The notes: generated by a model not told the origin, from the sequence alone. DNA of 37,689 nt from Candidatus Woesearchaeota archaeon (GCA_036481345.1 JAZGHU010000012.1:1-37689), one strand, 5' to 3'. Counted from the stretch's first letter, positions 6,741-32,959 are shown. Made by a program: numbers and translations.

Positions 6741-8223
6741 TTATATCACCTGATTCAAATTTAGCTGCACAATCATCAAATGCTTTTTCTCCCATTGCTA
6801 AAAGTTTGTCTGCATAAAGTTTTGATTGAGCATCTGTTATAATCCTGAAAACGCCTTTTTCTGTTTTAGAAGCCCTATACCATATCCAACCAGGGCCGTG
6901 TTTTTCTAATTCTCTTATTATCTTTAAGCCTCCTGTGGAATCTCCTGTTTTTCTTATCTCTTTTATGAATGATTGATTTTGCCAGTATTGTTCAAGTTTT
7001 GCTCTCATCTTTGGAACAGAATCTGGATCACATTTGATATCAACTCTTGAATTATAATAAGCAGGGAATTCTTCTAAGATCCCTGTTACTTTTTGTTTTC
7101 TTTTTGCCATTAAATGAAGAATCTGAATCAATGATAAGATGCCATCTCTACATTCTGATGGAGGAACTATCCCACCAGAAGAAGAACCTTCTCCACCAAC
7201 TGGCGCGTTCAATTCTTTCATCTTTTCTACAACATTAATCTCCCCTACTTCAACTTCAACAGTTCTTGCATCATGTTTTTTTGCTACTTCTTTGATTAAA
7301 TCAGAAGTTGCATCATTAGTGACTACTATCCTGTTCATCCCTTCATATTCTGATAAGACTGCTTCAACAATTAAAGCTAAAATATATTGGCCAGACAACA
7401 TTCTGCCTCTTTCTTTTGAAAATTTTGAAGAGTTTGGAATAACTAGTTCAACCCTGTCTCCGTCACAATCCCATCCTGCTCCAATGTCTGCTTCCAAGTC
7501 TTCAACATAATAGGCTAGGTAAGCTAGAGATTTTTCATTTGGTTCAACTAATCTATTGAATACACCCAAGGGCATGTTCTTTCCAATCATTTTTACATTT
7601 AGTTTTGCTAAAAGGTCTTTTATCACTGTTGAAGCTGCCCCCCCATTTGGATCAACAACAACTTTGAAGTTTGCATTTTGAATTGCAATAATCCCTTTTT
7701 CTCCTATCTGATTTAGTACAAAGTCAACATAGCTTTTCCTTAATTCTGAACCATGTTCTTCTGATGTTCCCCTTATCTCTTGTTTTTTAGGCGAAGAGTC
7801 AGACTCCTTTGTCGTCTGGGTACCTGGGGCTTTAGAATTATTAATTACTTCTTGAATCTCTTCAGGACGGAGAACAGAACCAGTAGATCTTAGAAATTTC
7901 CATCCATTCCAGATCGGTTCGTTGTGAGAAGCAGAAATTATTACCCCTCCTTGTGCTTTGTAATGCCTTACACCATGCTGGATTGCTGGAGTTGTGTTAA
8001 ATCCAACATCATAAACATCTATTCCTTGACTGAGGAATATTTTTTTCATGTCTTCTTTAATGATTGGGGAAGAAGGACGAGTATCCATACCTAGAATCAG
8101 TAATGGCTTTTTGTTAAGTTTTTTTAAGAAATTTGAATAGGCTAAAGCATAGTTTTCAACAACTTTTCTTGTTAAATCCTTGTTGAACAGTCCTCGTATC
8201 CCTGAAAATGATTCTGTTAGCAT
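6712..8223 (-). CDS. Alpha-D-phosphohexomutase (PGM/PMM/GlmM family)
   Basis: SGIRG, DTRPSS, phospho-Ser loop SASHN, metal loop DCDGDR, GGEG, RASKTE. Confidence 0.93.
   Translation of the reverse strand: MLTESFSGIRGLFNKDLTRKVVENYALAYSNFLKKLNKKPLLILGMDTRPSSPIIKEDMKKIFLSQGIDVYDVGFNTTPAIQHGVRHYKAQGGVIISASHNEPIWNGWKFLRSTGSVLRPEEIQEVINNSKAPGTQTTKESDSSPKKQEIRGTSEEHGSELRKSYVDFVLNQIGEKGIIAIQNANFKVVVDPNGGAASTVIKDLLAKLNVKMIGKNMPLGVFNRLVEPNEKSLAYLAYYVEDLEADIGAGWDCDGDRVELVIPNSSKFSKERGRMLSGQYILALIVEAVLSEYEGMNRIVVTNDATSDLIKEVAKKHDARTVEVEVGEINVVEKMKELNAPVGGEGSSSGGIVPPSECRDGILSLIQILHLMAKRKQKVTGILEEFPAYYNSRVDIKCDPDSVPKMRAKLEQYWQNQSFIKEIRKTGDSTGGLKIIRELEKHGPGWIWYRASKTEKGVFRIITDAQSKLYADKLLAMGEKAFDDCAAKFESGDINESNNNGSR
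7800..7818. repeat. Triloop hairpin inside the phosphohexomutase gene
   Basis: cagac-tc-ctttg-tc-gtctg (minus strand: cagac-GA-C-AAA-G-GA-gtctg) within a GC-richer patch at about 7790-7830. Confidence 0.55.
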
Positions 8224-8259
8224 TTTTATCTCTCGTCGGTATATATAGAAAACAATAAA

Positions 8260-8273
8260 ACTTATATATAAGT
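8260..8273. promoter_or_regulatory. Perfect 14-bp palindrome (bidirectional TATA box or operator) between divergent genes
   Basis: ACTTATATATAAGT is its own reverse complement. Confidence 0.55.
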
Positions 8274-8326
8274 ATTATTAAAATAATTATAATAGTATTA
8301 AAAATTAAATTGTAATAGTGATTAAT

Positions 8327-9250
8327 ATGTATGTTGTTGAAAAATCTAAAGCTGGAATAAGCTCTTTACCTGCAAAAGAAATAAAGTCAAACAAGATTAA
8401 ATATTTTGCAAGCAAGGTTGCTAGGGATATATTGAGAGAACTAGCTAAAGAATCTAATTATCCAAGAAAGCTTGCCAAGAAATTAAGGTTGAATGAGCAG
8501 CTTGTTTATTATCATATAAGAAATTTAGAGAAAGGTGGGTTAATTGAAGTAATTAAGAAAGAAAGAATTCAAGGAAGTTTTGCAAATTTTTATGCTTTGA
8601 AAGAACCTGCTTTTGTTGTGAAATTCAAAGAGTTTGATAAAGCTTCTAAGATATCTGAGTTAGAAAAAGAACAGACAAAATTTTTGACTCCTTTTATTGA
8701 AGATGGGAAGTTTAGGGCTACAATAATTATTGGAAGTCCTGATCCGCATGGTCCTGATAAAGCAAGAAGTAGAGATGGTTATTATGCAATTGATTTAGCT
8801 TTATTTTTTGGAACTTTTTTAAGTTATACTCCTGAATCAAGTGTAAAATTAGATACTGAAGTTAGAGAACATGATTTAGAAGGGAATATCATTGTTGTTG
8901 GGGGGCCTGTTGTTAATACTGTTACTGGAAAATTGAACCTTAAATTGCCAATTAAATTTGATAAAGAAAATAGTTGGGCTGTTAACTCTACTATTTCTGA
9001 AAAGAGTTATACTTCAGATGAGATTGGTGTAATAATCAAGATGAAAAATCCTTTTAATCCTAGGAAATCCCTTTTGTTAATTGCTGGGAAAAGGCATTCA
9101 GGAACAAAGGCTGCGATAATTGCGTTTTTAAAACATTTTAATGAGATTTCTAATGGGAATAAATTCAATAAAAATATGTTTGCTAAGATTGTCGAAGGAA
9201 TAGACTTAGATAGTGATGGAATTGTGGATGAAGTAGAATTTTTGGAGTAG
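8327..9250 (+). CDS. ArsR-like winged-HTH regulator fused to an S-layer C-terminal-like alpha/beta domain
   Basis: N-terminal YPRKLAKKL...QLVYYHIRNLEKGGLI; C-terminal IIIGSPDPHG, NIIVVGGPVVN, LIAG...GTKAA. Confidence 0.8.
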   Translation: MYVVEKSKAGISSLPAKEIKSNKIKYFASKVARDILRELAKESNYPRKLAKKLRLNEQLVYYHIRNLEKGGLIEVIKKERIQGSFANFYALKEPAFVVKFKEFDKASKISELEKEQTKFLTPFIEDGKFRATIIIGSPDPHGPDKARSRDGYYAIDLALFFGTFLSYTPESSVKLDTEVREHDLEGNIIVVGGPVVNTVTGKLNLKLPIKFDKENSWAVNSTISEKSYTSDEIGVIIKMKNPFNPRKSLLLIAGKRHSGTKAAIIAFLKHFNEISNGNKFNKNMFAKIVEGIDLDSDGIVDEVEFLE

Positions 9251-9252
9251 AC

Positions 9253-9720
9253 TTACTCGAAGAATATGCTTAAAATGTATTCGTCAACACCTTTGTAATA
9301 ATGATCTTTTATTTTTGCTTCTTCTTCAAAGCCCATCTTTTTGTAGAAGTTTCTTAGTTTTCTATTGTTGGAATGAACCATCGCATACATTTTTCTAAGT
9401 TTTAAATTTAATAATTTGAAATATTTATCTGCATCTTGGATTGCTTCTTGAAGAAGTCTTTTAGCAACCGCGTCTCTTTTTTTGCTTGCAAGAATACCTA
9501 TTCTTTCTATTCCAACTAGCTGGTGTTTTGGGAGTCCATGCATATCCCAGCTGATAACTCCTACAAGTTTACCATTTTCTTCTGCTACAATAAAATTATC
9601 TGATTTTCTTTCTCTTAGAAATGTTTGCTTACCTTCTTTAAGTGAGGAGATGTTAAAACATTTACATAACATCTTCCCTATTTTCTCTACATCTGCTAAT
9701 TTAGCTCTTCTATATTTCAT
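9253..9720 (-). CDS. GNAT family N-acetyltransferase
   Basis: YRRA..D, FIVAEENGKLVG, VHSNN...NFYKKMGF, HYYKGVD. Confidence 0.88.
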   Translation of the reverse strand: MKYRRAKLADVEKIGKMLCKCFNISSLKEGKQTFLRERKSDNFIVAEENGKLVGVISWDMHGLPKHQLVGIERIGILASKKRDAVAKRLLQEAIQDADKYFKLLNLKLRKMYAMVHSNNRKLRNFYKKMGFEEEAKIKDHYYKGVDEYILSIFFE

Positions 9721-9781
9721 ATTACTCCCTAAATAGAATATAGCTTTTCTAATATATAAGGATTTCTATTTACTTTATATG

Positions 9782-11542
9782 TTAAGAATAATAATACTTG
9801 TTTTTAGACTTTTGTTCTCGATCTTTAACACTACCTTCTTTGTTTGCTCTTGGTCTGTGAGATTCTTCATCTCTTCTGAAAGTGATCTCTAAATCCTGTA
9901 AGAAATGATTCATTCCTTGCTCCATCAGGAAAGGACCTTTTGCCATTCCTTCAATTGCAGGCTGACCATCAAAGATCAATAGTTTTTGAGAAATATAATC
10001 TAGGAAGAGAAGATCGTGGTCTACGATTATTGCTGATTTACCTCTATGCTCCATTATGTCTCTGATTATTTTTGAGACAATCAATCTTTGTTCTACATCC
10101 AAGTATGCAGACGGTTCGTCAAGAAGATAAAGATCTACATCTTTTGCTAAGCATAATGCAATTGAAACTCTTTGCAATTCTCCACCTGATAATTCATTTA
10201 GTTTTTTCATGTATAATGGCTTGATGTTTAATGGGTTGATAACATCATTAGTGTGTTTTTTTATTGCTTCTTGGAGAACATTTATCACTATTTCGTCTGA
10301 ATCTGATTTTAGATATTGCGGTTTGTATGAAACTTTGACTTTTGTTAGAATCTCTCCTTTGTCTGGCTTGATTTCTTTAGCTAGAATTTTGACAAAAGAT
10401 GTTTTTCCAATTCCATTTTCTCCTAAGATACCTGTTACTATTTTTTTATCTATATCTCCTGCTTCTGCTATTAAATTGAATGTTCCTAATTTCTTTTTTA
10501 TGTCTTTCCAGGAAGTTAGAATCAATTCTTCTGATTTCTTTTTTATTGGGGGGCGGCTTTGGAATTTAATTGGGTGGTCACGGAAACGCATATTTTCTTC
10601 TTTTAAATATCCTGATAAATAAGTGTTGATTGCTGTTCTTGTTGCTCTTGGGTTAGCTACAACACCATAACAAGATTCTTTTCCATACATAATATGGACA
10701 AGATCTGTCATATAATCTAAGATTATAAGATCGTGTTCAATAACTAATACAGAAGTAGATTCATTTGCTAAACTTTTTATGAATTTACTTACTTTGATTC
10801 TTTGTTTTATATCTAAATAAGAAGTTGGTTCGTCAAAGATGTATAAATTTGCTTTTTTTAGAACAGTAGCTGCTATTGCAACTCTTTGAAGTTCTCCACC
10901 TGATATTTTTTTGATGTCATGATCAAGAATTTGAGTTATGCTTAGTTCTTCTGCAATTTCTTTTAATTTGCCTTTTTCATCAACTTTTTTTAGCAAAGTT
11001 CTGACTTTTCCTTTTTCTGCTTTTGGGATTAAGTCTACTTGCTGGGGTTTGTAGGAAATATTAATCTCTTTGTCTCTTACTTTTTCAAAAAATAATTGTG
11101 ATTCTGTTCCTTTAAAGTATTCTATCAATTGTTCATAAGTAGCTTCTTTATCTTTTCCAAAATTTGGCTTTAAGACGCCTGCAAGAATCTTTATTGCAGT
11201 GGACTTTCCAATTCCGTTTATTCCTAATACGCCTACAACTTTTCCAAAAATAGGGGTTGGGAGGGAGAATAGTTCAAATCCATTTTCTCCATATCTGTGG
11301 ATTGGATCTTGTTCAAGTTCTTCTGGCAGATTTATGATATGTTCTGCTCCAAATGGGCATCTATTTTGGCAGATTCCACAGCCAGTGCAGAGGGCTTCAT
11401 CTATCTTAGCTTTGTTATTATCTCCTTTTGTGATGCATTCTTCTCCTGTCCTGTTTACAGGACATAGTTTAATACAAAGCCAATCTCCACAACCAGTTGG
11501 GTTGCATTTTTCTTTTTCAACTATTGCTAATCTTTTTGCCAT
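9782..11542 (-). CDS. rli1: Ribosome recycling ATPase ABCE1/Rli1
   Basis: Two N-terminal Fe-S Cys clusters and two ABC domains (GINGIGKST, GENGIGKTS, SGGELQR twice, DEPTSYLD and DEPSAYLD). Confidence 0.97.
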   Translation of the reverse strand: MAKRLAIVEKEKCNPTGCGDWLCIKLCPVNRTGEECITKGDNNKAKIDEALCTGCGICQNRCPFGAEHIINLPEELEQDPIHRYGENGFELFSLPTPIFGKVVGVLGINGIGKSTAIKILAGVLKPNFGKDKEATYEQLIEYFKGTESQLFFEKVRDKEINISYKPQQVDLIPKAEKGKVRTLLKKVDEKGKLKEIAEELSITQILDHDIKKISGGELQRVAIAATVLKKANLYIFDEPTSYLDIKQRIKVSKFIKSLANESTSVLVIEHDLIILDYMTDLVHIMYGKESCYGVVANPRATRTAINTYLSGYLKEENMRFRDHPIKFQSRPPIKKKSEELILTSWKDIKKKLGTFNLIAEAGDIDKKIVTGILGENGIGKTSFVKILAKEIKPDKGEILTKVKVSYKPQYLKSDSDEIVINVLQEAIKKHTNDVINPLNIKPLYMKKLNELSGGELQRVSIALCLAKDVDLYLLDEPSAYLDVEQRLIVSKIIRDIMEHRGKSAIIVDHDLLFLDYISQKLLIFDGQPAIEGMAKGPFLMEQGMNHFLQDLEITFRRDEESHRPRANKEGSVKDREQKSKNKYYYS

Positions 11543-11596
11543 AGGTGTTTAGGAGATAAGGGTCTTTTTAAAGGTTTGGTCAAAATACCAAACCAG

Positions 11597-11625
11597 ACAT
11601 TCATGAAACTTCGTTTTATAAATGT
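11597..11625. repeat. Intergenic triloop hairpin
   Basis: acattcatgaaac-TTC-gttttataaatgt (13-bp stem with one mismatch and one G-T). Confidence 0.6.
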
Positions 11626-11678
11626 AAAACTTTTGAATAATTAGAAAACAATTTAAACAATCTTGGAACTCTTTGTTT

Positions 11679-12104
11679 ATGGTTGAATTTAATCCTGATG
11701 GAAGTATTAAACTTCCAGAAAAGTTTGCAAAAATTAAAACAGAGAATGAGATGAGATTAAAGAATCAAAGATGTATAAAAGTAAAAAAAGATATTGTAAA
11801 TTTTGATTCTCCAAAAAAATGTACTCTTAATATAGTTCTTTCAGAAACAATTTCTGATAATAGATTTGTGGAAAATATTTATAATTTTTTTAGAGAAAAG
11901 TGTTCAGTTCCTACTAAGATTATGAAAGTTAATGAAAAAGAGTTTTCTGTTGAGATTGGTACAGATTTTAGAAGATGTAGTGATTGTTGTTCTTTAATAA
12001 ATAGGTATAAAGATTTTCTAGATGGAAATCTTATTGAAGAAAAAGGAAACTGTACTTATGAGAGAATTACTCAGAATTTTACATATGAAGATTATTTTGA
12101 TTAG
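11679..12104 (+). CDS. Hypothetical protein with AbrB-like N-terminal motif and Cys cluster
   Basis: MVEFNPDGSIKLP; RRCSDCC...GNC; own TATA-like tttaaac upstream. Confidence 0.8.
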   Translation: MVEFNPDGSIKLPEKFAKIKTENEMRLKNQRCIKVKKDIVNFDSPKKCTLNIVLSETISDNRFVENIYNFFREKCSVPTKIMKVNEKEFSVEIGTDFRRCSDCCSLINRYKDFLDGNLIEEKGNCTYERITQNFTYEDYFD

Positions 12105-12151
12105 TTTTCATTTTCACAAACCTTTAAATAGGTCTTTTTATTTGAATTACT

Positions 12152-12310: not shown

Positions 12311-12320
12311 GTAGATTTCT

Positions 12321-13412: not shown

Positions 13413-13416
13413 TACA

Positions 13417-24425: not shown

Positions 24426-25653
24426 TGTTTTTATCACCCATCATTTTTCGATATACATCCATGCATTCTTTTGCTGGATTGTTCCAATCAAATTTTTTGA
24501 CTTCTAAAGAGCCGTGATGCTTTAGCGTGTCGCTCAATTCTTTATATTTCAATACACCAAGCATCTTATTTACAATCTGATCAATATCCCAGAAGTCAAC
24601 TTTTAGACAATGACTTACTACTTCTGAAACACCAGATTGTTTTGATATCAACACAGGAGTGTTGTTTCTCATTGCTTCTAAAGGGGTAATACCAAATGGC
24701 TCTGATACAGAGGGCATAACATAAAGATCTGCCATTTGGTATGCTTTGTCAATTTCTTGACCCCTTAGAAACCCCGTGAATAGGACTTTGTCAGCTATTC
24801 CGAATTCTGCTGCTTTTTCTATCATGAACTGCTCCATGTCTCCGGAGCCAGCCACTATGAATTTTATGTTTGGATCAAATTCCAATGCTTTTTTAGCAGC
24901 ATATAGGAAATAATCTGGGCCTTTCTGGATTGTGATTCTTCCTAGGAATAGAACTATCTTATCTGTCTCTTTTATCTTGAAAGTTTCTTCTTCAAACTTA
25001 TGATCATTGAATTCAACAGCATTATGGACAACATGAATTTTTTCTTCTGGAATTTCATAATGCTTTACAATCTTATCTTTTGTCCATTTGCTTACCGCGA
25101 TAATTTCATCTGCTTCTTTCATCCCTTGTTTTTCAATATCATATACATATTGATTAGGATTGCCGCCTGTCCTGTCAAATTCTGTTGCATGAACATGGAT
25201 TACAAGAGGTTTACCTGATTTTTTCTTAGCATGGATCCCTGCTTGATAAGTCATCCAGTCATGAGCATGGATTACGTCAAATGATTCTCCTTCAGCTATG
25301 ATTCCTGCTTTGACTGCGTATCTTTTTACTTCTTCAAACAAGCCTGTGCCGTATAATGGTATGTTTTTTTTCTTTCCATATTTCAAGACAGCTTGGCTGT
25401 ATTCTTTGCTGTATTCTTCTGAAGTCATATAGCCCCTTATCATAGAATTTATCCCTATCTTTTTCATGCCTTTTCTGACGTCAGCTGAAACAAGCTTTAC
25501 AAATTCTGCTTTCATCTCTGGATTTGATACTGGGAGGACAAATGTTACACCGGCTCCCTGGTTTTTCAGGCCTTTTGTAAGGCCGTAGCAGGCAGTTCCT
25601 AATCCTCCTGAGTTATAAGGAGGGAATTCCCAACCAAACATCAGGACTTTCAT
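24418..25653 (-). CDS. GT4 glycosyltransferase (glycogen-locus associated)
   Basis: GWEFPP..SGGLG, HAHDW, HVHATE, GRITIQKG, PSVSEPFGITPLEA. Confidence 0.93.
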   Translation of the reverse strand: MKVLMFGWEFPPYNSGGLGTACYGLTKGLKNQGAGVTFVLPVSNPEMKAEFVKLVSADVRKGMKKIGINSMIRGYMTSEEYSKEYSQAVLKYGKKKNIPLYGTGLFEEVKRYAVKAGIIAEGESFDVIHAHDWMTYQAGIHAKKKSGKPLVIHVHATEFDRTGGNPNQYVYDIEKQGMKEADEIIAVSKWTKDKIVKHYEIPEEKIHVVHNAVEFNDHKFEEETFKIKETDKIVLFLGRITIQKGPDYFLYAAKKALEFDPNIKFIVAGSGDMEQFMIEKAAEFGIADKVLFTGFLRGQEIDKAYQMADLYVMPSVSEPFGITPLEAMRNNTPVLISKQSGVSEVVSHCLKVDFWDIDQIVNKMLGVLKYKELSDTLKHHGSLEVKKFDWNNPAKECMDVYRKMMGDKNNG

Positions 25654-25823
25654 TTTTTACCCCTCCATTTTTTGGAGTTGATTATCTTATTAAGATTAGT
25701 TTCTAAGAATTCTTCTAGAATTTCTTTTAATTGATCATTAACTTTTATGTTTTTTAGTTTACAGAAAGCGATGAATCTACGCCATGTATCTTCATCCATA
25801 TCTTTAATCAGCTTATTACTCAT
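25650..25823 (-). CDS. 57-aa ribbon-helix-helix-like protein heading the glycogen operon (not in ORF track)
   Basis: MSNKLIKDMDEDTWRRFIAFCKLKNIKVNDQLKEILEEFLETNLNKIINSKKWRGKK*; ATGA overlap with the GT4 start. Confidence 0.82.
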   Translation of the reverse strand: MSNKLIKDMDEDTWRRFIAFCKLKNIKVNDQLKEILEEFLETNLNKIINSKKWRGKK

Positions 25824-25870: not shown

Positions 25871-25908
25871 AGTATAAAAAGTTTATGTTTTTCTTTCAGA
25901 AAAACAAC

Positions 25909-25934
25909 GTTAAGAAAGCTTCGCGTTTCTTAAC
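25909..25934. repeat. Intergenic GCGAAGC-capped hairpin
   Basis: gttaagaaa-gcTTCgc-g-tttcttaac. Confidence 0.7.
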
Positions 25935-25957
25935 TTATGGTTTTTTTAGAAGTAAGA

Positions 25958-27178
25958 CTATTCGTATCTCAATGCGTCTACTGGGTTAAGTTTTGATGCT
26001 TGTATTGCAGGGAAAAGTCCTGATAATGTTCCTACTAAGAATGCAAATACTAGGCAGCCAATAACAAGCCAAGCAGGGAATGCTGGGCGAATCATTGAAA
26101 GGCCAACTGATGCTGTTATTGCTCCACCAAGTCTTGCAATTAAGTAGCCAAGTATGACCCCTATTGCTCCCCCTACAAGACCGAGAATTCCTGATTCAGC
26201 TACAAAAACAAAAAGTATGAATTTATTTTTAGCTCCAATTGATTTCATTATACCTATCTCTTGAGTTCTTTCTAAGATAGAAGTATACATTGTATTTGCT
26301 ATATTAACAGCAGCAACAACTACTGAGATTAATGCAATTATGACTAAGACTCCATTTAGAACAAGGATTATGTTTGTGAATGTTTTAAGTACATCTTCAA
26401 ATGTTTGAACTGTGAAGTCTTCTTCTCCTTCTCTCAATCCCCTATGTTTTCTAAATCTTTCTTCTATTTTTTCAGCTAATAATGCTGCGTTTTGATCTGG
26501 AGCAGCCCTTATGTAAACATATTCAAATTCATCTATGTCAAATATCTCTTCAAATCCTTCTTGAGAGATATAGAATTGAGCGTCATCAGCAGGAGAGCCA
26601 ATTTCTTCATAGATGCCCATTACTTCAACTTCAATATCATTAATTTCAACTTTATCCCCTACTTTAATTGCTTTTTTGAATAATCTATTTGGAACAGAGT
26701 TGCTGTATCCTGCAGTTGCCTTTAGAACATCTCCTTTTTTCAAGGCTCTGCCATCCATTATTTCAATTCCACCAAACATCTCTTCTACTAGTCTTTTTTC
26801 TTTGCTGTCTGTTGAAAGACCTATCACAAAAGGATAAACTTCTTTAAAATCTTTAAATTTAATTTTTCCTGTGCTTATATACATGCCTGTAACTTCGTCA
26901 ACTCCATTTATTTTTTTTAGAAATTCAACTTCATCTTTTGTAAATAAGATATTGCTTGTTCCAGGAGGCGATGTCAAGCCTCCGCCAGGCATCAAGAATA
27001 TCTTATCTGTTCCTTGTTCTTGGGCAAACGCACCAATCCAACTATTCAGCCCCTGCCCAAAGCTGACGAGTGCAAAGATTGCAGTGATTCCTATAAGGAT
27101 AGAGAGGATTGTAAGAAAACTTCTCATTTTTCTGTTCCAAAGATTGTTTATTGAATATTTTAGTATGTCTTTTATCAT
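25958..27178 (-). CDS. ABC transporter permease, MacB/FtsX family
   Basis: RSFLTILSILIG, large extracellular domain, NIANTMYTSILERTQEIGIMKSIGA, PAIQASKLNPVDALRYE. Confidence 0.93.
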   Translation of the reverse strand: MIKDILKYSINNLWNRKMRSFLTILSILIGITAIFALVSFGQGLNSWIGAFAQEQGTDKIFLMPGGGLTSPPGTSNILFTKDEVEFLKKINGVDEVTGMYISTGKIKFKDFKEVYPFVIGLSTDSKEKRLVEEMFGGIEIMDGRALKKGDVLKATAGYSNSVPNRLFKKAIKVGDKVEINDIEVEVMGIYEEIGSPADDAQFYISQEGFEEIFDIDEFEYVYIRAAPDQNAALLAEKIEERFRKHRGLREGEEDFTVQTFEDVLKTFTNIILVLNGVLVIIALISVVVAAVNIANTMYTSILERTQEIGIMKSIGAKNKFILFVFVAESGILGLVGGAIGVILGYLIARLGGAITASVGLSMIRPAFPAWLVIGCLVFAFLVGTLSGLFPAIQASKLNPVDALRYE

Positions 27179-27183
27179 CAGCC

Positions 27184-27256
27184 TTTTCCCTCGCTTCGTT
27201 CGGCAAAACCCTGGGGAAAATTTCCCAGTACCATTTTCGCTTCGCTCAAACGGGAC
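27184..27256. repeat. GC-rich three-hairpin insert between the permease genes (REP/MITE-like)
   Basis: TCGCTTCG(T/C)TC occurs twice (27191, 27237), each capping a stem, flanking ctggg-gaaaattt-cccag. Confidence 0.7.
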
Positions 27257-27278
27257 GATTTAATTTCATATTTATTTA

Positions 27279-28502
27279 TCATTTTGCCTGTCTTATGGCG
27301 TCTACTGGATTAAGTTTTGCTGCTCTTATTGCCGGGATTGTTCCGAAAACAGAACCTAAAATAAATGAAAATAATAATGCTCCAATGATCAGTCCTGGAG
27401 AGAAGTGAGCTGAGATCAAGTCTGTTCCTAATGCAATCCTTCCCACAGCTGAAAGTCCTGCTGCGATCAAAACTCCAAGAATAATTCCGATTGCCCCTCC
27501 AACTGTTCCTAAAAATCCTGATTCTACAAAAAATAAAGTAAATATTGTTGAGTTTTTAGCTCCAATCGACTTCATTATTCCAATTTCTTTTGTTCTTTCA
27601 ACAACTGCTGTGTACATTGTGTTCATTATTCCAATGCCTCCGACAATAATTGAGATTCCTGCTATTATGTATACAAAAATTTGTATTCCCAAGATAACTG
27701 AATTAACACTTTCAATAATTGATTGGGGTGTTTCTACTGAGAAATCTTCTTCTCCCTCATCAACATCTCTTATTTTTCTTAGTTTTTTTTCTATGTCTGT
27801 TTTTATTTTTTCTATGTCTTTAGATTCATCAAATTGAACTGCTATGATATCATATTCATCATCTGGCCTGCCAACTAGATTTCTTAGATCATCTTCATTG
27901 AGAAAGACTGTTCCGTCTAATTGGAAATTTCCTTTTTTCTCCATTATTCCAACAACTTTGAATTCCCTATCCAAGACTTCTACTTTAGCTCCTGGAAGAA
28001 TTGCTTTTCCAAATCCATTGTCTTCTTCTCCGAACATCGCTCCTAAGAAAACAGAACCAGATTCCCCGTCTTCTAGAAGTCTTCCTTTTTCTTCTTTCAT
28101 ATTCATGAGATGCTCCATAACATCCCTGTCTTCTCCATCAGGCATAGATAGAGCAAATCCGAATCCAGCTTGTTTATTGTAAACAAGTTTTCCTGATTCA
28201 AATATTCTCCCTGCTACCTCCATAACTCCTTGAACATCGTCTATTGCATTAATTTCTTTTTCTGTCAAGGGGTCGGCAACACCTGTTCCAGGAGGTCCGA
28301 ATCCTCCGCTAGCTATTACAGATAAGATATCTGTTCCTAAGAATCCAAATTGGGAATTTATTGTCTCTCTCAGACCTTCTCCTAATCCTATTAGAGCTAC
28401 GACTGAGGCTATTCCTATGAATATACCAATCATAGTAAGCCAAGATATTATCTTTCTATGCCTCAGAGTATCTAATGCAAATTTAATGTAATCTTTTACC
28501 AT
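27279..28502 (-). CDS. ABC transporter permease, MacB/FtsX family
   Basis: SWLTMIGIFIG, GGIGIMNTMYTAVVERTKEIGIMKSIGA, PAIRAAKLNPVDA. Confidence 0.93.
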   Translation of the reverse strand: MVKDYIKFALDTLRHRKIISWLTMIGIFIGIASVVALIGLGEGLRETINSQFGFLGTDILSVIASGGFGPPGTGVADPLTEKEINAIDDVQGVMEVAGRIFESGKLVYNKQAGFGFALSMPDGEDRDVMEHLMNMKEEKGRLLEDGESGSVFLGAMFGEEDNGFGKAILPGAKVEVLDREFKVVGIMEKKGNFQLDGTVFLNEDDLRNLVGRPDDEYDIIAVQFDESKDIEKIKTDIEKKLRKIRDVDEGEEDFSVETPQSIIESVNSVILGIQIFVYIIAGISIIVGGIGIMNTMYTAVVERTKEIGIMKSIGAKNSTIFTLFFVESGFLGTVGGAIGIILGVLIAAGLSAVGRIALGTDLISAHFSPGLIIGALLFSFILGSVFGTIPAIRAAKLNPVDAIRQAK

Positions 28503-29758
28503 TTACCGAAGATTTTCTTTCCTTTCTTTTTCTGTCTCCAGATGTAGACTCCCAGGCCTCCTATGACGATGATAAAGATTATTACTCCTCCAATACTTCT
28601 TTCTCTTGATAATCCGTATTTTTTAGCTTCTAAAGAGGAATATTGTCTTAATTCTAGATTTTCTGTTAAGGAATATTTATTGTTGTTTGAGTCCATGTAT
28701 TCGATTACTAATGGTAGCGGAACTATGTCTTTTCTACTTTTGACATAAAGGTTGAATTCAGCTGTTTCATAATCATCTGAATCAATGTTCCCGATGTAGA
28801 CTTCTGCAGGAGAGATAATCTCATAATTCTTTGATTCTTTTAATTTGATATTAAGGAATTTTATGTCTGTAACTCCTTTATTTACGAATCTCATCGTCAC
28901 CTTTCCCCCTTTGTTCACCCCATAGATCTCAGAAGATTCAATTCCTACATATATGTCTGGCTTGTCTCCAACAATCAAACTGATTATATCGCTTTTTTCA
29001 TATTTTGTTCCGGCTTCATCATAATATGAAACATCTAATGGAATTTTGTATGCTTGTGAGTCAGCATCAGCCATTGCCATTATATCAAAGACTACAACTG
29101 TTTCTTCTTTTGAATCAAGTTGATAGATCTTTTTTTCAGTGGTTGATCTTATTGGAACAAATGGAATATCTTCTGAGCTCAGATCTATCTTTACTTTTAA
29201 ATCTTTGACTAATGAATCAGCCAGATTTCTTATCTTGAATTTAAGTTTTGCTTTTTGTCCAGGTGGCACCATTTCGGGAATGGACTCGACTTCGTCGATT
29301 TGCAAAACAATATCATCTGTTCTGACTCTTATCACAAAATCTTCAACATATGTCCATCGATCAGACATTTCTCCAAATTTGTATCTTATGTCAATAAAAT
29401 TGTCTCCTTCTACTGCATTTTCGTCAACTTTGAGTTCATAGTGAACAATGACGCCTTCGTCTCCCTGCTGGTATGCCTGCATAGAGCCGATATTTTCTTC
29501 AGCAGATCCAGTATACATAGAGAACGGATATTCAGGCAGGACTTCAAAGATTATATCTTCTGTTCCTCCTCCGCCTTTGTTCTCTATTTTGAACCTTAGA
29601 TCAAGAATCCCACCAGGAGATGCTGGATCTGGCTCTTGACTTATCAGGGTTACCTGTAGTCTTGCAGAGTCTGCTACAATTAGTCCATGTGCTATTGAAG
29701 CAACCCCCAATGTTATCAATAGGCATAATGCCAATATTGCTAGTTTTTTTGTTTTCAT
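28496..29758 (-). CDS. COG1361 S-layer-like / CARDB-repeat surface protein
   Basis: Signal peptide, QEPDPASPG...IENKGG Ig-like repeats, YIGNIDSDDYE, C-terminal TM helix with basic tail. Confidence 0.85.
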   Translation of the reverse strand: MKTKKLAILALCLLITLGVASIAHGLIVADSARLQVTLISQEPDPASPGGILDLRFKIENKGGGGTEDIIFEVLPEYPFSMYTGSAEENIGSMQAYQQGDEGVIVHYELKVDENAVEGDNFIDIRYKFGEMSDRWTYVEDFVIRVRTDDIVLQIDEVESIPEMVPPGQKAKLKFKIRNLADSLVKDLKVKIDLSSEDIPFVPIRSTTEKKIYQLDSKEETVVVFDIMAMADADSQAYKIPLDVSYYDEAGTKYEKSDIISLIVGDKPDIYVGIESSEIYGVNKGGKVTMRFVNKGVTDIKFLNIKLKESKNYEIISPAEVYIGNIDSDDYETAEFNLYVKSRKDIVPLPLVIEYMDSNNNKYSLTENLELRQYSSLEAKKYGLSRERSIGGVIIFIIVIGGLGVYIWRQKKKGKKIFGKW

Positions 29759-30459
29759 TTCTTACCACCTTTATGTTTAGTTTTGATTATAACACCATCT
29801 TTTAGATAATCTACTCTTCCTGCACATTGTACAAGATGAGCATCGTGTGTGACCATGATAATTGTCTTTCCTTCGTCTTTATTAAGTTTGCAAAGGAAAT
29901 CCATTACTAATCTTCCTGTTTTTGAATCAAGATTTCCTGTTGGTTCGTCTGCTAGGATAACTTCAGGATCATTTGCCAATGATCTTGCTATTGCAACTCT
30001 TTGCTGCTGGCCTCCTGACATTTCTGTTGGCTTGTGATCCATTCTGTCTCCTAATTCTACCATTTTCAAAAGCTTTTCAGCTCTTGTTATTCTTTTTTGA
30101 ATAGGAGTTCCTTGGAACATCATAGGAAGCATTACATTTTCTTTTGCTGAGAGAGTAGGGATAAGGTTGAATTGCTGGAAAATAAAGCCAATTCTTCTTC
30201 CTCTAAGATTAGCTAGATTAGATTCACTTAATTTAGAGATATCTTTTCTGTCTAAGAAGATTTTTCCTTTTGTCGGGATGTCTAAGGCACCGATCATGTT
30301 TACTGCAGTTGATTTTCCAGAGCCAGAAGGACCCATTATTGCTACAAACTCTCCATCTTTGATCTCAAAATTCATCCCTCTAAGAGCATGAACTTCTACT
30401 TCGCCCATCTTGTATGTTTTCCATACATCTACTATCTTGATTATTGTGGGTGCAGTCAT
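29755..30459 (-). CDS. ABC transporter ATP-binding protein, LolD/MacB family
   Basis: GPSGSGKST, IGFIFQQFNL, MSGGQQQRVAIAR, LADEPTGNLD, VTHD. Confidence 0.96.
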   Translation of the reverse strand: MTAPTIIKIVDVWKTYKMGEVEVHALRGMNFEIKDGEFVAIMGPSGSGKSTAVNMIGALDIPTKGKIFLDRKDISKLSESNLANLRGRRIGFIFQQFNLIPTLSAKENVMLPMMFQGTPIQKRITRAEKLLKMVELGDRMDHKPTEMSGGQQQRVAIARSLANDPEVILADEPTGNLDSKTGRLVMDFLCKLNKDEGKTIIMVTHDAHLVQCAGRVDYLKDGVIIKTKHKGGKK

Positions 30460-30593
30460 TTCTTATCCTCCATTGCCCTTTTTATAAGGAATTCAAAACC
30501 ATGAGAACGATTAGCAAAGATTTTTTCCTCTATTTTTAAATCTAACCATTTTAGAAGTTCTTTGTCGGTTGTTACTGTTATACGTTCTTTCAC
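30456..30593 (-). CDS. 45-aa ribbon-helix-helix protein heading the ABC operon (not in ORF track)
   Basis: GTG start: MKERITVTTDKELLKWLDLKIEEKIFANRSHGFEFLIKRAMEDKK*; ATGA overlap with the ATPase; AGGT upstream. Confidence 0.82.
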   Translation of the reverse strand: MKERITVTTDKELLKWLDLKIEEKIFANRSHGFEFLIKRAMEDKK

Positions 30594-30605
30594 TGTGAAT
30601 ACCTA

Positions 30606-30653
30606 TTACATACTTTTACATACTCTTTATGATAATTACTTACTAAGTATGCA
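30606..30653. promoter_or_regulatory. TTAC(A/T)TACT repeats on a 10-bp phase plus an inverted copy (putative operator)
   Basis: ttacatact at 30606 and 30616, ttacttact at 30636, inverted agtatgca at 30646; next to the minus-strand TATA ttttatata (about 30658-30666). Confidence 0.6.
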
Positions 30654-30739
30654 CTACTATATAAAACTTTCCTTTGATGTTTTTGAAACGATTAGTAATT
30701 ATAGTAAATTTTATAAGAGGCAACTGATTTTTCTGTTCT

Positions 30740-31309
30740 ATGAAAGAAGAAAAAAAGAAATTAATCATCAGCCTATTTATTGTGTTTATTATGGTCAGCA
30801 GTGGTATTGGCTATATGTTTGGTAAAGATGGTGGAGAAAAATATAAATATAATGATCACTCTTTTTTGAAAAGAGGAAATGAATGGGTATTGAAAGTAGA
30901 TGGAGGAGAATTAGTTTTTAGTTATTTTCCTGAGACTGTTGAGAACATTGATCTAAATTTTGATATTTCTGCTCTTAATGGATTGGTTGAGATTGATACC
31001 ACTTCTGATCCTGATGATAAATTTAAAGGGAAAATTGCTGAGGCTCAGTATAAGATGCAAGATGTTTTAGGAAAAGCATCAAATACATATATTTTAAATG
31101 GAATGACTGATGAAAATGATTTTAATATGCCAATAATTGGTTGTGATAAAGCAACAAGTTTAGTCCCTGTAATATATTTTAAGGAATCAAATGAGACGAA
31201 AATAGAGAAAGTTGGAGAATGTATCATTGCAGAGGCAAGATCTGAATTAGATGTTCTTGCATTAAAAGATAGGATATTATATGGTATGCTTGGGATTATA
31301 GAACAATAA
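30740..31309 (+). CDS. N-terminally membrane-anchored hypothetical protein with Cys pair
   Basis: N-terminal TM helix; YNDHSF...W; IGCDKA..LVPVIYFKESNETKI...CI. Confidence 0.85.
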   Translation: MKEEKKKLIISLFIVFIMVSSGIGYMFGKDGGEKYKYNDHSFLKRGNEWVLKVDGGELVFSYFPETVENIDLNFDISALNGLVEIDTTSDPDDKFKGKIAEAQYKMQDVLGKASNTYILNGMTDENDFNMPIIGCDKATSLVPVIYFKESNETKIEKVGECIIAEARSELDVLALKDRILYGMLGIIEQ

Positions 31310-31337
31310 ACTAAAGTAATTGAAAATCAATTACAGG

Positions 31338-31364
31338 GTTTGCAATTGCTATGCAATGGCAAAC
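31338..31364. repeat. Intergenic triloop hairpin
   Basis: gtttgc-a-attgc-TAT-gcaat-g-gcaaac. Confidence 0.6.
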
Positions 31365-31396
31365 TTTAAAAAAACCAAATTCTAAGGTGTATATAT

Positions 31397-32221
31397 ATGG
31401 GAGAAGAACAACCAAAGCCAGAAGGTGGAGAAGCAAAACCTCCAGAAGGACAACCAGCTCCTGAAGGCGAGGCAAAACCTCCAGAAGCTCCTAAGCCTGA
31501 AGAAGGTGGAGGAGAATCAAATCAAGGGGCTGAAACGGCCAGCGGGGGAGAAAAACAAGCAGAACCTCCAAAAGAAGATCCTTCTATTGAAAATAAAGTC
31601 AAATTAGATATCATTAAAAAAATATTAGATGACAAACCAAAAGAAGCTCCTCAACCAAGAGTAGAAGTAGTGAATGTTGAAGGAGGAGAAGGACAACCTC
31701 AAGGCGAAGCACTAAATCCAGAAGGGCAACCTATGCCTCAAGAAGGAGGACAACCTCCAGAAGGAGGAGATGCAGGGGGAGGACAACCAGCAGGAGAAAA
31801 GCCAAATTATAAAGAGATCGCAAAAAAAGTAGGAATTATTGCTGGAATTGTATTAGCTGTTTTTTTAATCATATTTCTTGGAGCAAAAGCATTAAGAGGA
31901 CCAACAGGAGCCACTATTGAAGAAGTTGAAGTTCAAGAAGAAGATTCAGAAGAACAAGATGTAAAAGAACTTTATAATAAATTAAGTGAAAAAGCAGGGT
32001 TAGTTGAAGAGGAAGAAGAAGAGCAAGAGGAAGAACCTGAAGAAGAGACAGAGGAAGAAGAAGTTGTTGAAGAAAAAGAATCTTCAGAAGGAATATTAAG
32101 TGGAATAAGGGGCATTCTTAATAACTTATTAGGTGGAGATGAAGAGAAAGAGACAGAGGAAGAAGAAACTTCTGAGTCTAAAAGCGGAATATTAGCAGGG
32201 TTAACAAAATTAATAGGATAA
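31397..32221 (+). CDS. Single-pass membrane protein with Pro/Glu/Gly-rich and Glu-rich disordered halves
   Basis: PEG(G)/QP repeats, one TM helix followed by PTGATI, duplicated GIL(S/A)G motif. Confidence 0.85.
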   Translation: MGEEQPKPEGGEAKPPEGQPAPEGEAKPPEAPKPEEGGGESNQGAETASGGEKQAEPPKEDPSIENKVKLDIIKKILDDKPKEAPQPRVEVVNVEGGEGQPQGEALNPEGQPMPQEGGQPPEGGDAGGGQPAGEKPNYKEIAKKVGIIAGIVLAVFLIIFLGAKALRGPTGATIEEVEVQEEDSEEQDVKELYNKLSEKAGLVEEEEEEQEEEPEEETEEEEVVEEKESSEGILSGIRGILNNLLGGDEEKETEEEETSESKSGILAGLTKLIG

Positions 32222-32252
32222 TTATTAAAAACTAATATCTAAGTTGATTTAT

Positions 32253-32891
32253 ATGGATAAAAATACTAAGAAGATTTTGGAATTTGTTGTGATAATAATA
32301 ATAGTATTTGCTTTGACTTTTTTAGCTAGGTATTTTTATGATGATGAAGCAACAACACTAGATGAATTGCATAGAAAAAATTTAGAAGGAGAAAAAGTTG
32401 GAACTAATTATGTTTATGATGGATTTTCTTTTGTTTTTGTAGATAATTTATGGTATACGCAGGTTCAAAGAAAAGGCGATACTATCCTGGATATTCCCCT
32501 CCATTTTGGACCAAAAGAGTTAGAAAATATTTCTATTATTGGAGAAAATTGGAAGTTGGAGGACCCTGAAGTTTACCTTACATTTGATCCTGATGAAGGA
32601 AATAATTTCAAATTTACTACGTTAGCAATTCTTGAATTGAGTTTGAATTTGGCAAAAGGTATGGAAATAAAACCAGTTGCTGCATGCACTAAGAATGAAA
32701 CTTCTGCTTGTATAGACAGGCCTATTGTTACATGTGCAAGCAAAGATAAAGCTGTTATTTATCTGAAGCAGACTAATGAGAGTGGAAAAGTAAAGCTTAA
32801 TGGAAATTGTGTTGAATTGAGTGGAGAAGATTGGGAATTGGTCAAGGCAACAGACAGATTCTTGCTTCAGTGGTATGGGGTTATGAAGTAA
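32253..32891 (+). CDS. Membrane-anchored hypothetical protein, paralogue of 30740..31309
   Basis: TM helix; YDGFSF...W; VTCASKDKAVIYLKQTNESGKV...NCV; four Cys. Confidence 0.85.
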   Translation: MDKNTKKILEFVVIIIIVFALTFLARYFYDDEATTLDELHRKNLEGEKVGTNYVYDGFSFVFVDNLWYTQVQRKGDTILDIPLHFGPKELENISIIGENWKLEDPEVYLTFDPDEGNNFKFTTLAILELSLNLAKGMEIKPVAACTKNETSACIDRPIVTCASKDKAVIYLKQTNESGKVKLNGNCVELSGEDWELVKATDRFLLQWYGVMK

Positions 32892-32897
32892 TGGCTA

Positions 32898-32959
32898 CAA
32901 CTGGTTACGCTCAGTTGACACGCAAAATTAAGTGAGACATTGACTTTGTCAAGTCTCAC
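32898..32959. repeat. Two intergenic triloop hairpins
   Basis: caactg-gttacgct-cagttg (32898-32917) and gtgagac-a-ttgac-TTT-gtcaa-gtctcac (32932-32959). Confidence 0.7.

Follow-up and report, generated by a model that had tools for sequence, protein, structure and literature searches.

Does the series of short hairpins dispersed along this archaeal contig belong to one repeat system acting on single-stranded DNA, and what determines the way round in which the hairpin loops sit? The window, meaning the whole stretch of 37,689 nucleotides analyzed here (JAZGHU010000012.1:1-37689), comes from the genome of Candidatus Woesearchaeota archaeon (GCA_036481345.1, hereafter abbreviated as G000), an assembly of 66 contigs that is 86.23% complete and has no mapped origin. 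A preliminary description of the window listed nine hairpins with unrelated stems and a three-base loop, which were taken as a single repeat system. Our analysis partly confirms the reality of that observation and partly supports its interpretation.

The listed sites were folded as single-stranded DNA of the minus strand and compared with 200 shuffles per site, using a DNA nearest-neighbour energy model in which neither GNA loops nor sheared G.A pairs receive a bonus. Perfect stems in the window were scanned against 200 dinucleotide shuffles, intergenic DNA of the genome against 100 shuffles and energy-defined sites genome-wide against 12 shuffles. The intergenic set amounts to 85.9 kb (about 9.5% of the DNA) and derives from crude gene calls (ORFs of at least 90 codons, taken greedily), so that it also takes in tRNA introns and small genes.

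The Nine Hairpins of the Window

The nine sequences are as originally written, their loops on the + strand reading TTT, TTC, TTC, TTC, TTC, TTC, TAT, TAC and TTT; rather than one family, the members in the window are three unrelated things. Class membership does not hold for four of the nine sites (7800, 27191, 27237 and 29286), which are coding and show weak folding or none. The first (7800..7818, minus strand) is coding sequence in the long ORF of a phosphogluco/mannomutase-like gene and reaches only -2.2 kcal/mol with a 5-bp stem and a 9-nt loop, 8/200 shuffles being as good. Sites 27191 and 27237 remain unfolded (0 kcal/mol) and are contained in a minus-strand ORF of 34 codons (27178..27282) that extends a few bases into the gene on either side. 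The perfect 5-bp C-TTC-G hairpin at 29286..29298 (minus strand) lies within a 420-codon ORF and folds at -2.8 kcal/mol, with 25/200 shuffles as good; such hairpins occur at chance level in the window (7 vs 6.6 expected).

Site 11597 is a weak member of the class. It belongs to a singleton pair of hairpins lying between divergent genes (11573..11625, strand unassigned), in which an 8-bp stem with a 6-nt loop (11573-11594) is followed by an imperfect stem carrying a C-TTC-G loop, as read by eye (11597-11625; -2.7 to -3.2 kcal/mol, 15/200 shuffles as good), and the 3' arm of the latter includes the TATA-like TTTATAAA. Another pair, a singleton located between two + genes (31316..31364, strand unassigned), begins with an 8-bp stem that has an AAA loop closed by A-T (31316-31334) and continues with the C-TAT-G hairpin at 31338-31364, which folds at -7.9 kcal/mol with 0/200 shuffles as good; it is succeeded by a TTTAAAAA stretch, with the next ATG at 31397. 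No conserved copy of this pair was found among 30 relatives, the best match having an E value of 0.0015.

A Class of Intergenic Hairpins Defined by Shape

With perfect stems of at least 4 bp the window contains 17 C-closed triloops against 23.2 +/- 4.9 in the 200 dinucleotide shuffles, and with stems of at least 5 bp it contains 7 against 6.6 +/- 2.4; by these counts the whole window therefore has no excess of C-NNN-G triloop hairpins. Its sites at -6 kcal/mol or below number three, for which the genome-wide shuffles predict about 0.46 per window (11.3 per 925 kb). The genome-wide scan proposed in the preliminary description does reveal enrichment, not in the window but in intergenic DNA, where C-closed triloops amount to 36 vs 12.5 +/- 3.6 with stems of at least 5 bp, 17 vs 3.6 +/- 1.8 with at least 6 bp and 12 vs 1.1 +/- 1.0 with at least 7 bp, none of which is reached by any of the 100 shuffles. 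Energy-defined sites in the whole genome are similarly in excess (51 vs 31.8 +/- 5.4 at -5 kcal/mol or below, 25 vs 11.3 +/- 3.3 at -6 or below), and 39 of the 104 strong sites (-4 or below) are intergenic, even if intergenic DNA represents only about 9.5% of the total.

The genome thus possesses a genuine class of short stem-loops between genes that is defined by shape and has several origins. The three bases of the loop, closed by 5'-C...G-3', are in most cases GAA or AAA, with TTC or TTT on the opposite strand. The stems in our lists of strong hairpins are mutually unrelated and most members are singletons, while all-against-all blastn of 501 intergenic segments retrieves small families only, including one of four copies to which site 25909 belongs; the earlier view that the class is defined by structure and not by sequence is supported. 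Hairpins often come together, two or more being present in 38 of the 99 hairpin-bearing co-directional intergenic regions. The heptamer GCGAAGC occurs 23 times in the genome, and all nine of its intergenic occurrences cap stems; in the window it is found at 25918-25924 on the minus strand, while the loops at 31338 (ATA) and 32932 (AAA) are of the R-N-A and not of the G-N-A form.

Loop Orientation and Strand Asymmetry

On the + strand of the window, exhaustive scanning of perfect stems of at least 4 bp yields eight T-N-Y loops vs two R-N-A loops, and energy-defined sites (-1 kcal/mol or below) are divided 23:6, for a pentamer base rate of 265:196 (p about 0.02). To place such values in a genomic frame, 29 contigs were oriented by the mean GC skew of + genes and - genes, which corrects for gene direction. 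T is enriched on the resulting G-rich strand as well (r 0.78, with 24/29 contigs agreeing in sign), and therefore the corrected skew is of the replication type and not of the coding type, although as a proxy of replication it is indirect, since a contig whose two strands differ in gene composition could give rise to a similar signal.

Intergenic C-closed hairpins carry their T-first loop on the G-rich strand in 58/82, 40/53 and 32/42 cases at -1, -2 and -3 kcal/mol or below, respectively, against a pentamer base rate of 330:324 (0.505; p 2e-4 to 1e-3). The proportions persist once the contig of the window is removed (52/76, 36/49 and 28/38), contig-flip permutation gives p values of 0.008, 0.0024 and 0.0029, and the direction is the same for contigs of either orientation. 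At -3, contigs with the majority of loops on the G-rich strand outnumber those with the minority 13:2; by hand count, the rule is obeyed in 23/28 cases in contigs having an absolute skew of at least 0.03 and in 9/14 in the others. At the same three thresholds no bias is found for loops closed by G (21/38, 8/19, 5/11), A (61/118, 29/56, 16/28) or T (99/190, 46/89, 27/50). Perfect stems show a weak C-closed bias (44/72 vs 38.5 expected, p 0.19). The test pooling intergenic and genic hairpins is marginal at -1 and -2 (z 1.6-1.9) and reaches z 3.25 at -3, and it was after this marginal result that the intergenic and genic sets were separated. A simple test detects no significant over-dispersion among contigs (chi2 45.5 on 38 df, p 0.19; chi2 19.7 on 23 df, p 0.66).

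Neighbouring genes separate this asymmetry from transcription. In co-directional regions (-2 or below) the A-last loop lies on the sense strand 16:1 when the sense strand is C-rich, vs 3:7 when it is G-rich, and convergent regions (-1 or below) keep the strand rule 12:1; the cases in which the strand rule and a sense rule make different predictions are few, at 9:8, 7:3 and 6:2. Loop orientation hence tracks an asymmetry between the strands that does not depend on gene direction, in agreement with the claim that it ignores the direction of adjacent genes. The polarity reported for the window extends to intergenic C-closed hairpins genome-wide (40/53), relative to this replication-like asymmetry. 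Lack of enrichment, equal strand distribution and orientation tracking transcription had been named as the outcomes that would speak against the preliminary description, and among intergenic members none of the three is observed.

Contribution of Transcription

A transcriptional effect also exists, because among triloops with any closing pair and stems of at least 6 bp in co-directional regions the purine loop is on the sense strand 25:5 (base rate 0.57, p 0.003). Many hairpins, moreover, lie 3-30 nt past a stop codon, and for C-closed hairpins inside genes the split in favour of the sense strand is 104:56, consistent with their pentamer base rate of 4248:2597. These data would fit an account in which proxy, thresholds and small numbers produce a spurious polarity and the hairpins are ordinary structures of transcripts (hairpins at 3' ends or terminators, intron stems, palindromes resembling operators) with A-rich loops that follow the sense strand; the non-significant over-dispersion and the post hoc nature of several analysis choices are also consistent with it. 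We consider this account possible yet rather doubtful, since a model based on sense alone misfits the contrast of 16:1 vs 3:7, and the bias is restricted to C-closed loops, survives both contig removal and contig-flip permutation and is the same in either contig orientation. Terminator-like sites, in addition, are not clearly enriched in the window (8 vs 8.9 and 17 vs 11.3 +/- 3.9 in two scans), and a run of four Ts within 10 nt is found downstream of 15/126 hairpins vs upstream of 9/126. Archaeal terminators are described as a U-tract acting with aCPSF1 (PMC8716108, PMC7515710), and termination of this kind does not need a hairpin; they resemble our hairpins in their place just behind stop codons and in the T-rich tract that follows some of them, but differ in that the orientation of the hairpins does not simply follow transcription.

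Comparison with Known Single-Stranded DNA Hairpins

The preliminary description envisaged a dedicated signal system, with hairpins recognized by a protein while single-stranded during replication and their orientation maintained for this reason. Candidate binders would be a HUH enzyme of the REP/RAYT kind, primase as at ssi signals, or another hairpin-binding protein. REP/BIME elements associated with RAYT (a Y1 HUH enzyme) form sequence families of hundreds of copies, in which a 5' tetranucleotide is conserved and which come with a RAYT gene. Like these and the subterminal hairpins of IS200/IS605, ours are extragenic, often located just after genes, often arranged in adjacent pairs and connected with single-stranded DNA and the replication strand; unlike REP, their stems are unrelated, no family with many copies is found (the largest has four) and no Y1 or TnpB gene was detected. 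Specifically, the 86%-complete genome has 0 matches to Y1/HUH TnpA/RAYT (PF01797; 6/14 control genomes positive), 0 to TnpB (PF07282) and 0 to tyrosine recombinase/integrase (PF00589), and no reverse-transcriptase gene was found in it. The proposed link with HUH enzymes is consequently not supported, for RAYT and for IS200/IS605 alike. Integron attC sites, too, are recognized by fold and not by sequence, their orientation relative to replication being important, which makes them comparable to the present hairpins; they nevertheless differ in the order of core sites (by eye), and the hairpins are dispersed, with neither cassette arrays nor a PF00589 match in the genome.

A closer parallel is provided by mini-hairpins of the GNA type. 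GCGNAGC DNA has extraordinary stability, SSB binds the GCGAAAGC-type mini-hairpin poorly, and GNA mini-hairpins occur at initiation sites that depend on primase (phage G4, ssiA of RSF1010) and in phage N4 promoters (PMC13037366). They share with our class the C-G closure around G-N-A, of which the nine intergenic GCGAAGC caps are examples, and in that source their function depends on strand and structure. The mini-hairpins described there, however, occur singly, at origins or promoters of phages or plasmids, whereas those found here are dispersed over a cellular chromosome, have AAA loops as commonly as GAA and are without a known partner protein. These precedents, together with a polarity that does not depend on transcription and is confined to C-closed loops, the preference for GAA, the over-representation of GCGAAGC tops in intergenic DNA (9/23) and the small non-syntenic families of two-hairpin units, would favour a dedicated signal.

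Such a system nonetheless appears unlikely, considering the enzyme genes not found in the 86%-complete genome, the unrelated stems and the four copies of the largest family. The stable purine loop (GAA/AAA), furthermore, is on the C+A-rich strand, which by the usual skew convention is the leading-strand template and not the exposed lagging-strand template, so that the lagging-strand template invoked in the preliminary description is probably the wrong strand.

Two Families with Conserved Pairing

Pairing is conserved in both families that can be aligned. The first is a genus-specific cassette of two hairpins on the minus strand (25887..25934), lying beside a TATA-like box. Its hairpin B (25909-25934; -5.8 kcal/mol, 4/200 shuffles as good) has the GCGAAGC top and a 1-nt bulge, and hairpin A spans 25887-25905. 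The cassette starts 24 nt past the stop codon (25958) of a FtsX/MacB-like gene and ends 6 nt before the TATA-like box (25873-25880), which precedes a 57-codon ORF (25650-25823); the T-rich tract following 25909 on the minus strand makes it one of the isolated clear terminator-like cases. Copies are found in non-syntenic places, four in G000 (contigs C12, C10, C35 and C40), 4-5 in G001 and 1-3 in G002. In the alignment of nine copies (A2), 95.1% of the cells are paired, a value reached by 0/500 shuffles (slid controls, 45-59%), and 6/18 pairs are changed on both sides.

The second family is represented by a conserved, intron-derived structured RNA module on the + strand (32898..32961), the sole copy in G000. 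It consists of P1 (32898-32917), a linker and P2 (32932-32959), whose top is the C-TTT-G triloop of site 32932; site 32898, originally described as a triloop, is P1 itself, with a 7-bp stem and a loop of six bases. As minus-strand DNA, 32898 folds at -3.2 kcal/mol (6-bp stem, 8-nt loop; 1/200 shuffles) and 32932 at -8.4 kcal/mol (0/200 shuffles as good). The covariance model R1 scores 47.2 bits at the module (E 8.5e-12 to 5e-13), and 5/7 pairs of P2 are changed on both sides in alignment A1 (19 distinct rows). Because the G.U wobble pairs of the conserved P1 stem fit the + strand only, this is the functional strand of both sites. The 25-nt core pattern of the module is present in 42/201 genomes of the order, its reversed control giving 0 matches.

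In relatives the module resides in tRNA T-loops, where its removal in silico restores a detectable tRNA at 8/11 loci with six anticodons, and one copy is a tRNA intron at the canonical position. It is also found within a MITE of G066 that has 14-bp terminal inverted repeats and target duplications of 8-10 bp (4/6 copies examined), and copies standing alone have direct repeats of 15-88 nt on either side. The copy in the window sits between two protein ORFs, outside any tRNA gene, with no evident bulge-helix-bulge partner and, by eye, no inverted repeats or target duplication around it. In view of this position and of the T-loop loci of relatives, it is related to introns without being one itself. 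Transposed tRNA introns of Thermoproteales (Fujishima et al. 2010), as described in a review (PMC4090602), are alike in that module removal restores tRNA in relatives; unlike them, the module has hosts in a different archaeal group and occurs also outside tRNA genes, in a MITE or between long direct repeats.

The MITE (4/6 copies), T-loop and direct-repeat (15-88 nt) contexts of the module and the non-syntenic cassette might suggest that most hairpins were left behind by small mobile elements (intron-like modules, MITEs, two-hairpin cassettes) inserted with a bias relative to the replication fork, polarity being a footprint of insertion and not of function. This is very unlikely, since the members are for the most part singletons whose stems are unrelated, the 25909 family obeys the strand rule in only 2/3 copies and no transposase was found in G000.

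A Proposed Role of Replication in Hairpin Orientation

The explanation that we favour, tentatively and with slightly less than even confidence, is that replication imposes its orientation upon intergenic hairpins that have other primary roles. Those roles would lie at the transcript level, as structures behind stop codons or intron structure, or in small mobile repeats, while replication would set which way round the hairpins sit, a dedicated enzyme being unnecessary. As single-stranded DNA, the C(GNA)G fold-back would have an unusual stability that its complement C(TNC)G lacks, and selection would therefore act against the stable form on the template strand left exposed by lagging-strand synthesis.

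Listed Hairpin Sites and Their Setting

The window fills the entire 37,689-bp contig (C12) of an assembly, G000, that comprises 924,922 bp in 66 contigs and is 86% complete; the contig, with 33% G+C and genes for topoisomerase VI A and B and an ABCE1/RLI-type protein, is archaeal. The preliminary description had joined nine C-NNN-G triloop hairpins into one family, at 7800, 11597, 25909, 27191, 27237, 29286, 31338, 32898 and 32932, and re-reading of the window confirmed the sequence and loop of every one. Each site was folded as minus-strand DNA against 200 shuffles, with an energy model in which neither GNA loops nor sheared G.A pairs have a term. Sites 31338 (-7.9 kcal/mol), 32932 (-8.4) and 25909 (-5.8) fold strongly, with 0, 0 and 4 of 200 shuffles equally good; site 32898 also folds (equalled by 1/200), but with a long loop and no triloop. 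Folding is weak at 11597, 7800 and 29286 (15, 8 and 25 of 200 shuffles as good), and with this model, which lacks those two terms, 27191 and 27237 do not fold. Sites 7800 and 29286 lie within long ORFs and 27191 and 27237 within an unannotated 34-codon ORF (27178-27282, minus strand), which is situated between two FtsX/MacB-like permease genes and overlaps both; four of the nine sites are therefore ordinary coding sequence. The single family thus dissolves into members of mixed origin, but the class of hairpins with a loop closed by 5'-C...G-3' (C-closed) is real, its shared properties being a C-closed R-A-A loop and an orientation.

Excess of C-Closed Triloops between Genes

Enrichment over shuffled sequence, which the preliminary description had put forward as one check of its proposal, does not hold for the window as a whole, in which perfect stems of at least 4 bp number 17 against 23.2 +/- 4.9 in 200 shuffles and those of at least 5 bp number 7 against 6.6 +/- 2.4. 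Three sites in the window reach -6 kcal/mol or lower, where genome-wide shuffles predict about 0.46. Across the genome, C(NNN)G hairpins defined by energy outnumber those in shuffles only among the most stable, with 51 versus 31.8 +/- 5.4 at or below -5 kcal/mol and 25 versus 11.3 +/- 3.3 at or below -6 kcal/mol, and strong sites cluster between genes (39/104 at or below -4 kcal/mol are intergenic). Genes were taken by a crude, greedy choice of ORFs of at least 90 codons (906 genes, coding fraction 0.908), so that the intergenic set takes in small genes, tRNA introns and RNA genes. When the 501 intergenic segments were shuffled separately (100 shuffles), C-closed triloops were clearly enriched (36 vs 12.5, 17 vs 3.6 and 12 vs 1.1 for stems of at least 5, 6 and 7 bp), and no shuffle reached these counts. 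G-closed triloops (9 vs 1.1 at stems of at least 7 bp), C-closed tetraloops (7 vs 1.1) and A/T-closed loops show a smaller fold excess; hairpins are thus over-represented between genes in general, and C-closed triloops most of all. On the C-rich strand their loops most often read GAA or AAA, and GCGAAGC occurs 23 times in the genome, including nine intergenic occurrences that all sit on stems.

Within the window, G-NNN-C palindromes are also above shuffles (40 vs 27.6 +/- 5.4 at stems of at least 4 bp; 17 vs 8.0 +/- 2.9 at 5 bp or more, with 0/200 shuffles as high), possibly a codon-pattern effect.

Orientation with Respect to Strand Asymmetry

According to the preliminary description, the purine loop of the listed hairpins always lies on the minus strand of the window, whatever the direction of neighbouring genes. 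Exhaustive scans retain the lean, with T-N-Y to R-N-A loops on the plus strand at 8:2 for perfect stems and 23:6 for sites at or below -1 kcal/mol (p ~0.02 against a base rate of 265:196). The lean does not come from gene direction, since the genic sites involved split into 13 sense and 10 antisense. Genome-wide, genic hairpins carry the purine loop on the sense strand in 104:56 cases, matching the pentamer base rate (4248:2597) and hence reflecting composition, and because contig orientation is arbitrary the raw totals are balanced (99 T-N-Y vs 96 R-N-A).

The plus strand of the window is both G-rich and T-rich, despite near-equal gene content per strand (17.4 kb vs 17.0 kb), and we therefore oriented contigs by skew, taking the mean of plus-strand GC skew in plus genes and in minus genes for the 29 contigs with at least 3 kb of genes per strand. 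The G-rich strand in this frame is also T-rich (r 0.78; sign agreement 24/29), an asymmetry of the replication type, the coding type being that which pairs G-rich with A-rich; as a proxy for replication it is indirect, because no origin is mapped. In G000, the one genome to which this result applies, intergenic C-closed hairpins place the T-first loop on the G-rich strand in 58/82, 40/53 and 32/42 cases at or below -1, -2 and -3 kcal/mol, respectively, against a base rate of 330:324 (p = 2e-4 to 1e-3). The same cut-offs give 58/82, 40/53 and 33/42 with TA skew as the proxy and 52/76, 36/49 and 28/38 when contig C12 is left out, while permutation by flipping whole contigs gives p values of 0.008, 0.0024 and 0.0029. 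The rule is seen in contigs of both orientations (19:7 and 13:3, by hand count of the site list) and in all four of the window's real sites (11609, 25919, 31349 and 32944); in the 29-contig frame, no polarity is found in G-, A- or T-closed triloops or in genic hairpins.

Transcription could be thought to impose the same orientation. Among co-directional intergenic regions, at or below -2 kcal/mol, the A-last loop lies on the sense strand in 16:1 cases when sense is the C-rich strand and in 3:7 when it is the G-rich strand, and convergent regions follow the strand rule 12:1 at or below -1 kcal/mol. A sense-only model fails on these counts, few as the discriminating cases are, and a strand-only model fits them, which upholds the independence from neighbouring gene direction that had been claimed. 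A smaller effect of transcription is probably added to the strand rule, since stems of at least 6 bp with any closing pair give 25:5 on the sense strand.

The polarity would be explained away if it were an artefact combined with ordinary RNA hairpins, an account that we consider unlikely though by no means negligible. The separation of genic from intergenic data was made after a marginal pooled test, perfect-stem C-closed counts show only a weak polarity trend, and simple over-dispersion of loop polarity among G000 contigs is not significant; on the other side stand the contig-flip permutation and the restriction of the polarity to C-closed loops.

Complete and Other Relatives

The complete relative G026 contains GCGAAGC 14 times forward and 8 times reverse (reversed control, 13 and 11), and 19 of 20 sites examined are genic, with 8 on the sense and 11 on the antisense strand. 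An apparent two-block strand pattern in this genome was discarded: GCAAAGC does not repeat it (27:7 and 30:15 in pre-set blocks, hand count), and the pattern does not match the position of the sole Cdc6 gene (765 kb). With a generic hairpin covariance model (R2), G026 gives only seven hits, all weak, and 13 relatives give 0-11 hits per genome at E <= 1, the E-values being rough. Hits in G001, G002 and G004 include adjacent same-strand pairs spaced 25-53 nt apart (e.g. G001:C7:113055 and 113080), and tandem hairpin pairs of the same polarity are thus common to relatives.

Paired Hairpins and Small Repeat Families

Site 25909 belongs to a cassette of two adjacent hairpins (25887-25934, minus strand), which begins 24 nt past a stop codon and ends 6 nt short of a TATA-like box; downstream of both lies an unannotated 57-codon ORF (25650-25823, minus strand). 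Nine copies were aligned, four from G000, four from G001 and one from G002, which belong to the same genus and carry the cassette at non-syntenic places. Pairing is retained in 95.1% of the cells, and both sides have changed in 6 of 18 pairs. Apart from a few cases elsewhere, only this family adjoins a promoter (8/9 rows, sharing one alignment position). As a general rule such adjacency was rejected, since the last hairpin lies at the distance from the next start codon expected of random placement, and a TATA-like box occurs within 18 nt on the downstream side of a hairpin in 9/99 cases versus 7 upstream.

The singleton hairpin pairs at 31316-31364 and 11573-11625 have no conserved copy that we could find elsewhere. 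A second small repeat family of G000, each unit a hairpin pair that leads into a long T run just behind a stop codon, occurs at C22:11258-11340, C53:1064-1176, C38:3999-4292, C42:1849-2286, C60:8459-9169 and C19:11966-12063, and looks terminator-like.

A Structured Module Found within tRNA Genes

Sites 32898 and 32932 are parts of one structured module (32898-32961), the 25-nt core of which matches 42 of 201 genomes sampled from the order (39/170 genera); those that match have 1-16 copies each, and the reversed control matches none. Its covariance model (R1) finds a single copy in G000 (47.2 bits) and, among 11 genomes of the family, has hits in eight. The first stem is near-invariant across an alignment of 19 distinct copies, with U.G in 9 rows and G.U in 19/19, which become mismatches if read on the other strand, and five of the seven pairs of the second stem have changed on both sides. 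Two correlated changes of the core recur in several genera, loop C to G with linker G to C and stem T to C with linker A to G; judging from sequence, they suggest either tertiary pairs between first loop and linker or distinct subfamilies. Rfam returned only noise at 32800-33050 and no match on seven loci with the long form of the module.

The module loci considered are L013-L059 (L013-L024 coming from genomes among G001, G005, G007 and G010). Relatives carry the module within tRNA genes. Eleven loci of this kind yield no tRNA in ARAGORN when left unedited; once 82-105 nt beginning in the T-loop are deleted in silico, eight of them yield one, namely Ala-CGC, Ala-UGC (two), Pro-GGG, Ser-CGA (two), Met-CAU and Trp-CCA, four of these eight being from G007 (two), G010 and G005. 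The other three loci gave none, probably because of truncated flanks. Another copy, an insert of 106 nt, occupies the canonical position in the anticodon loop, and a bulge-helix-bulge fold was derived by eye for one locus.

Free-standing copies, including that of the window, sit just 5' of gene starts, and several have direct repeats of the target on either side, 15-27 nt long (by eye) or 88 nt in one syntenic relative; two of the three syntenic comparisons are from G001 and G005. Three relatives carry the module one gene further downstream than in the window. In G066 the module forms the core of a ~300-bp element located between housekeeping genes; in four of six copies examined this element has perfect 14-bp terminal inverted repeats and 8-10-bp target duplications. 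The long forms are flanked by housekeeping genes, none of which encodes a nuclease or transposase.

The window itself has two adjoining tRNA genes with inserts, one of 110 nt (4546-4655) matched by Rfam and missed by ARAGORN, the other of 90 nt (4668-4757) found by both, its amino acid unnamed by ARAGORN. Only 12 tRNAs are reported by ARAGORN in the whole assembly, so that many tRNA genes are probably interrupted. The tRNA gene at C14:17080-17340 of G000 has two inserts, in the anticodon region and the T-loop, both rich in GC-capped triloop hairpins and including one GCGAAGC top. Despite the presence of intron-bearing tRNA genes, G000 (86% complete) has no match to the splicing endonuclease domain PF01974; the endonuclease gene may be in the missing 14% or divergent.

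Interpretation and Significance

Mini-hairpin DNA of the GCGNAGC type is hyperstable when single-stranded, and SSB binds the GCGAAAGC-type mini-hairpin poorly, as documented in a review (PMC13037366). We tentatively favor, at somewhat less than an even chance, a reading in which the hairpins would have other primary roles, and replication would select which way round the C-closed ones sit, hyperstability as ssDNA being limited to the version on one strand.

A stronger claim, close to that of the preliminary description, is that intergenic C(GAA/AAA)G hairpins form a dedicated, structure-defined ssDNA signal read in chromosome replication. Small mobile cassettes, and an intron-like module able to create tRNA introns as well, would account for part of their spread; the hairpins would then be the cellular, dispersed counterpart of folded sites of the ssi and attC type. 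The strand rule and the non-syntenic cassette copies are compatible with such a system, which is improbable in our judgment. The proposed link to HUH/Y1/RAYT enzymes found no backing, as a search of G000 (86% complete) returned no Y1/HUH transposase; nor did we find TnpB, a tyrosine recombinase or a reverse transcriptase there. Orientation-biased insertion of small mobile elements, which the target duplications of G066 might recall, is a very doubtful source of the polarity, seen next to singleton pairs that lack conserved copies.

Should the strand rule prove true of closed genomes, it would represent a structure-defined feature polar to replication in an archaeon. The replication-polar sequence features known to us (Chi, KOPS and attC arrays) are all from bacteria. 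We found no description of the polar hairpin class or of the module in open-access papers and bioRxiv. The rule, if true, would provide a handle on how replication shapes the non-coding DNA of very small genomes.

The module, present as a T-loop intron in at least six tRNA species, free-standing and in a transposon-like form, may outweigh the polarity in importance. With regard to archaeal tRNA introns, 'how they arrive remains open', in the words of a preprint (bioRxiv 10.64898/2026.10.13.758758). The tRNA-intron, free-standing and MITE-like forms of the module constitute a possible route for their origin, and this family makes the question of their arrival directly testable.
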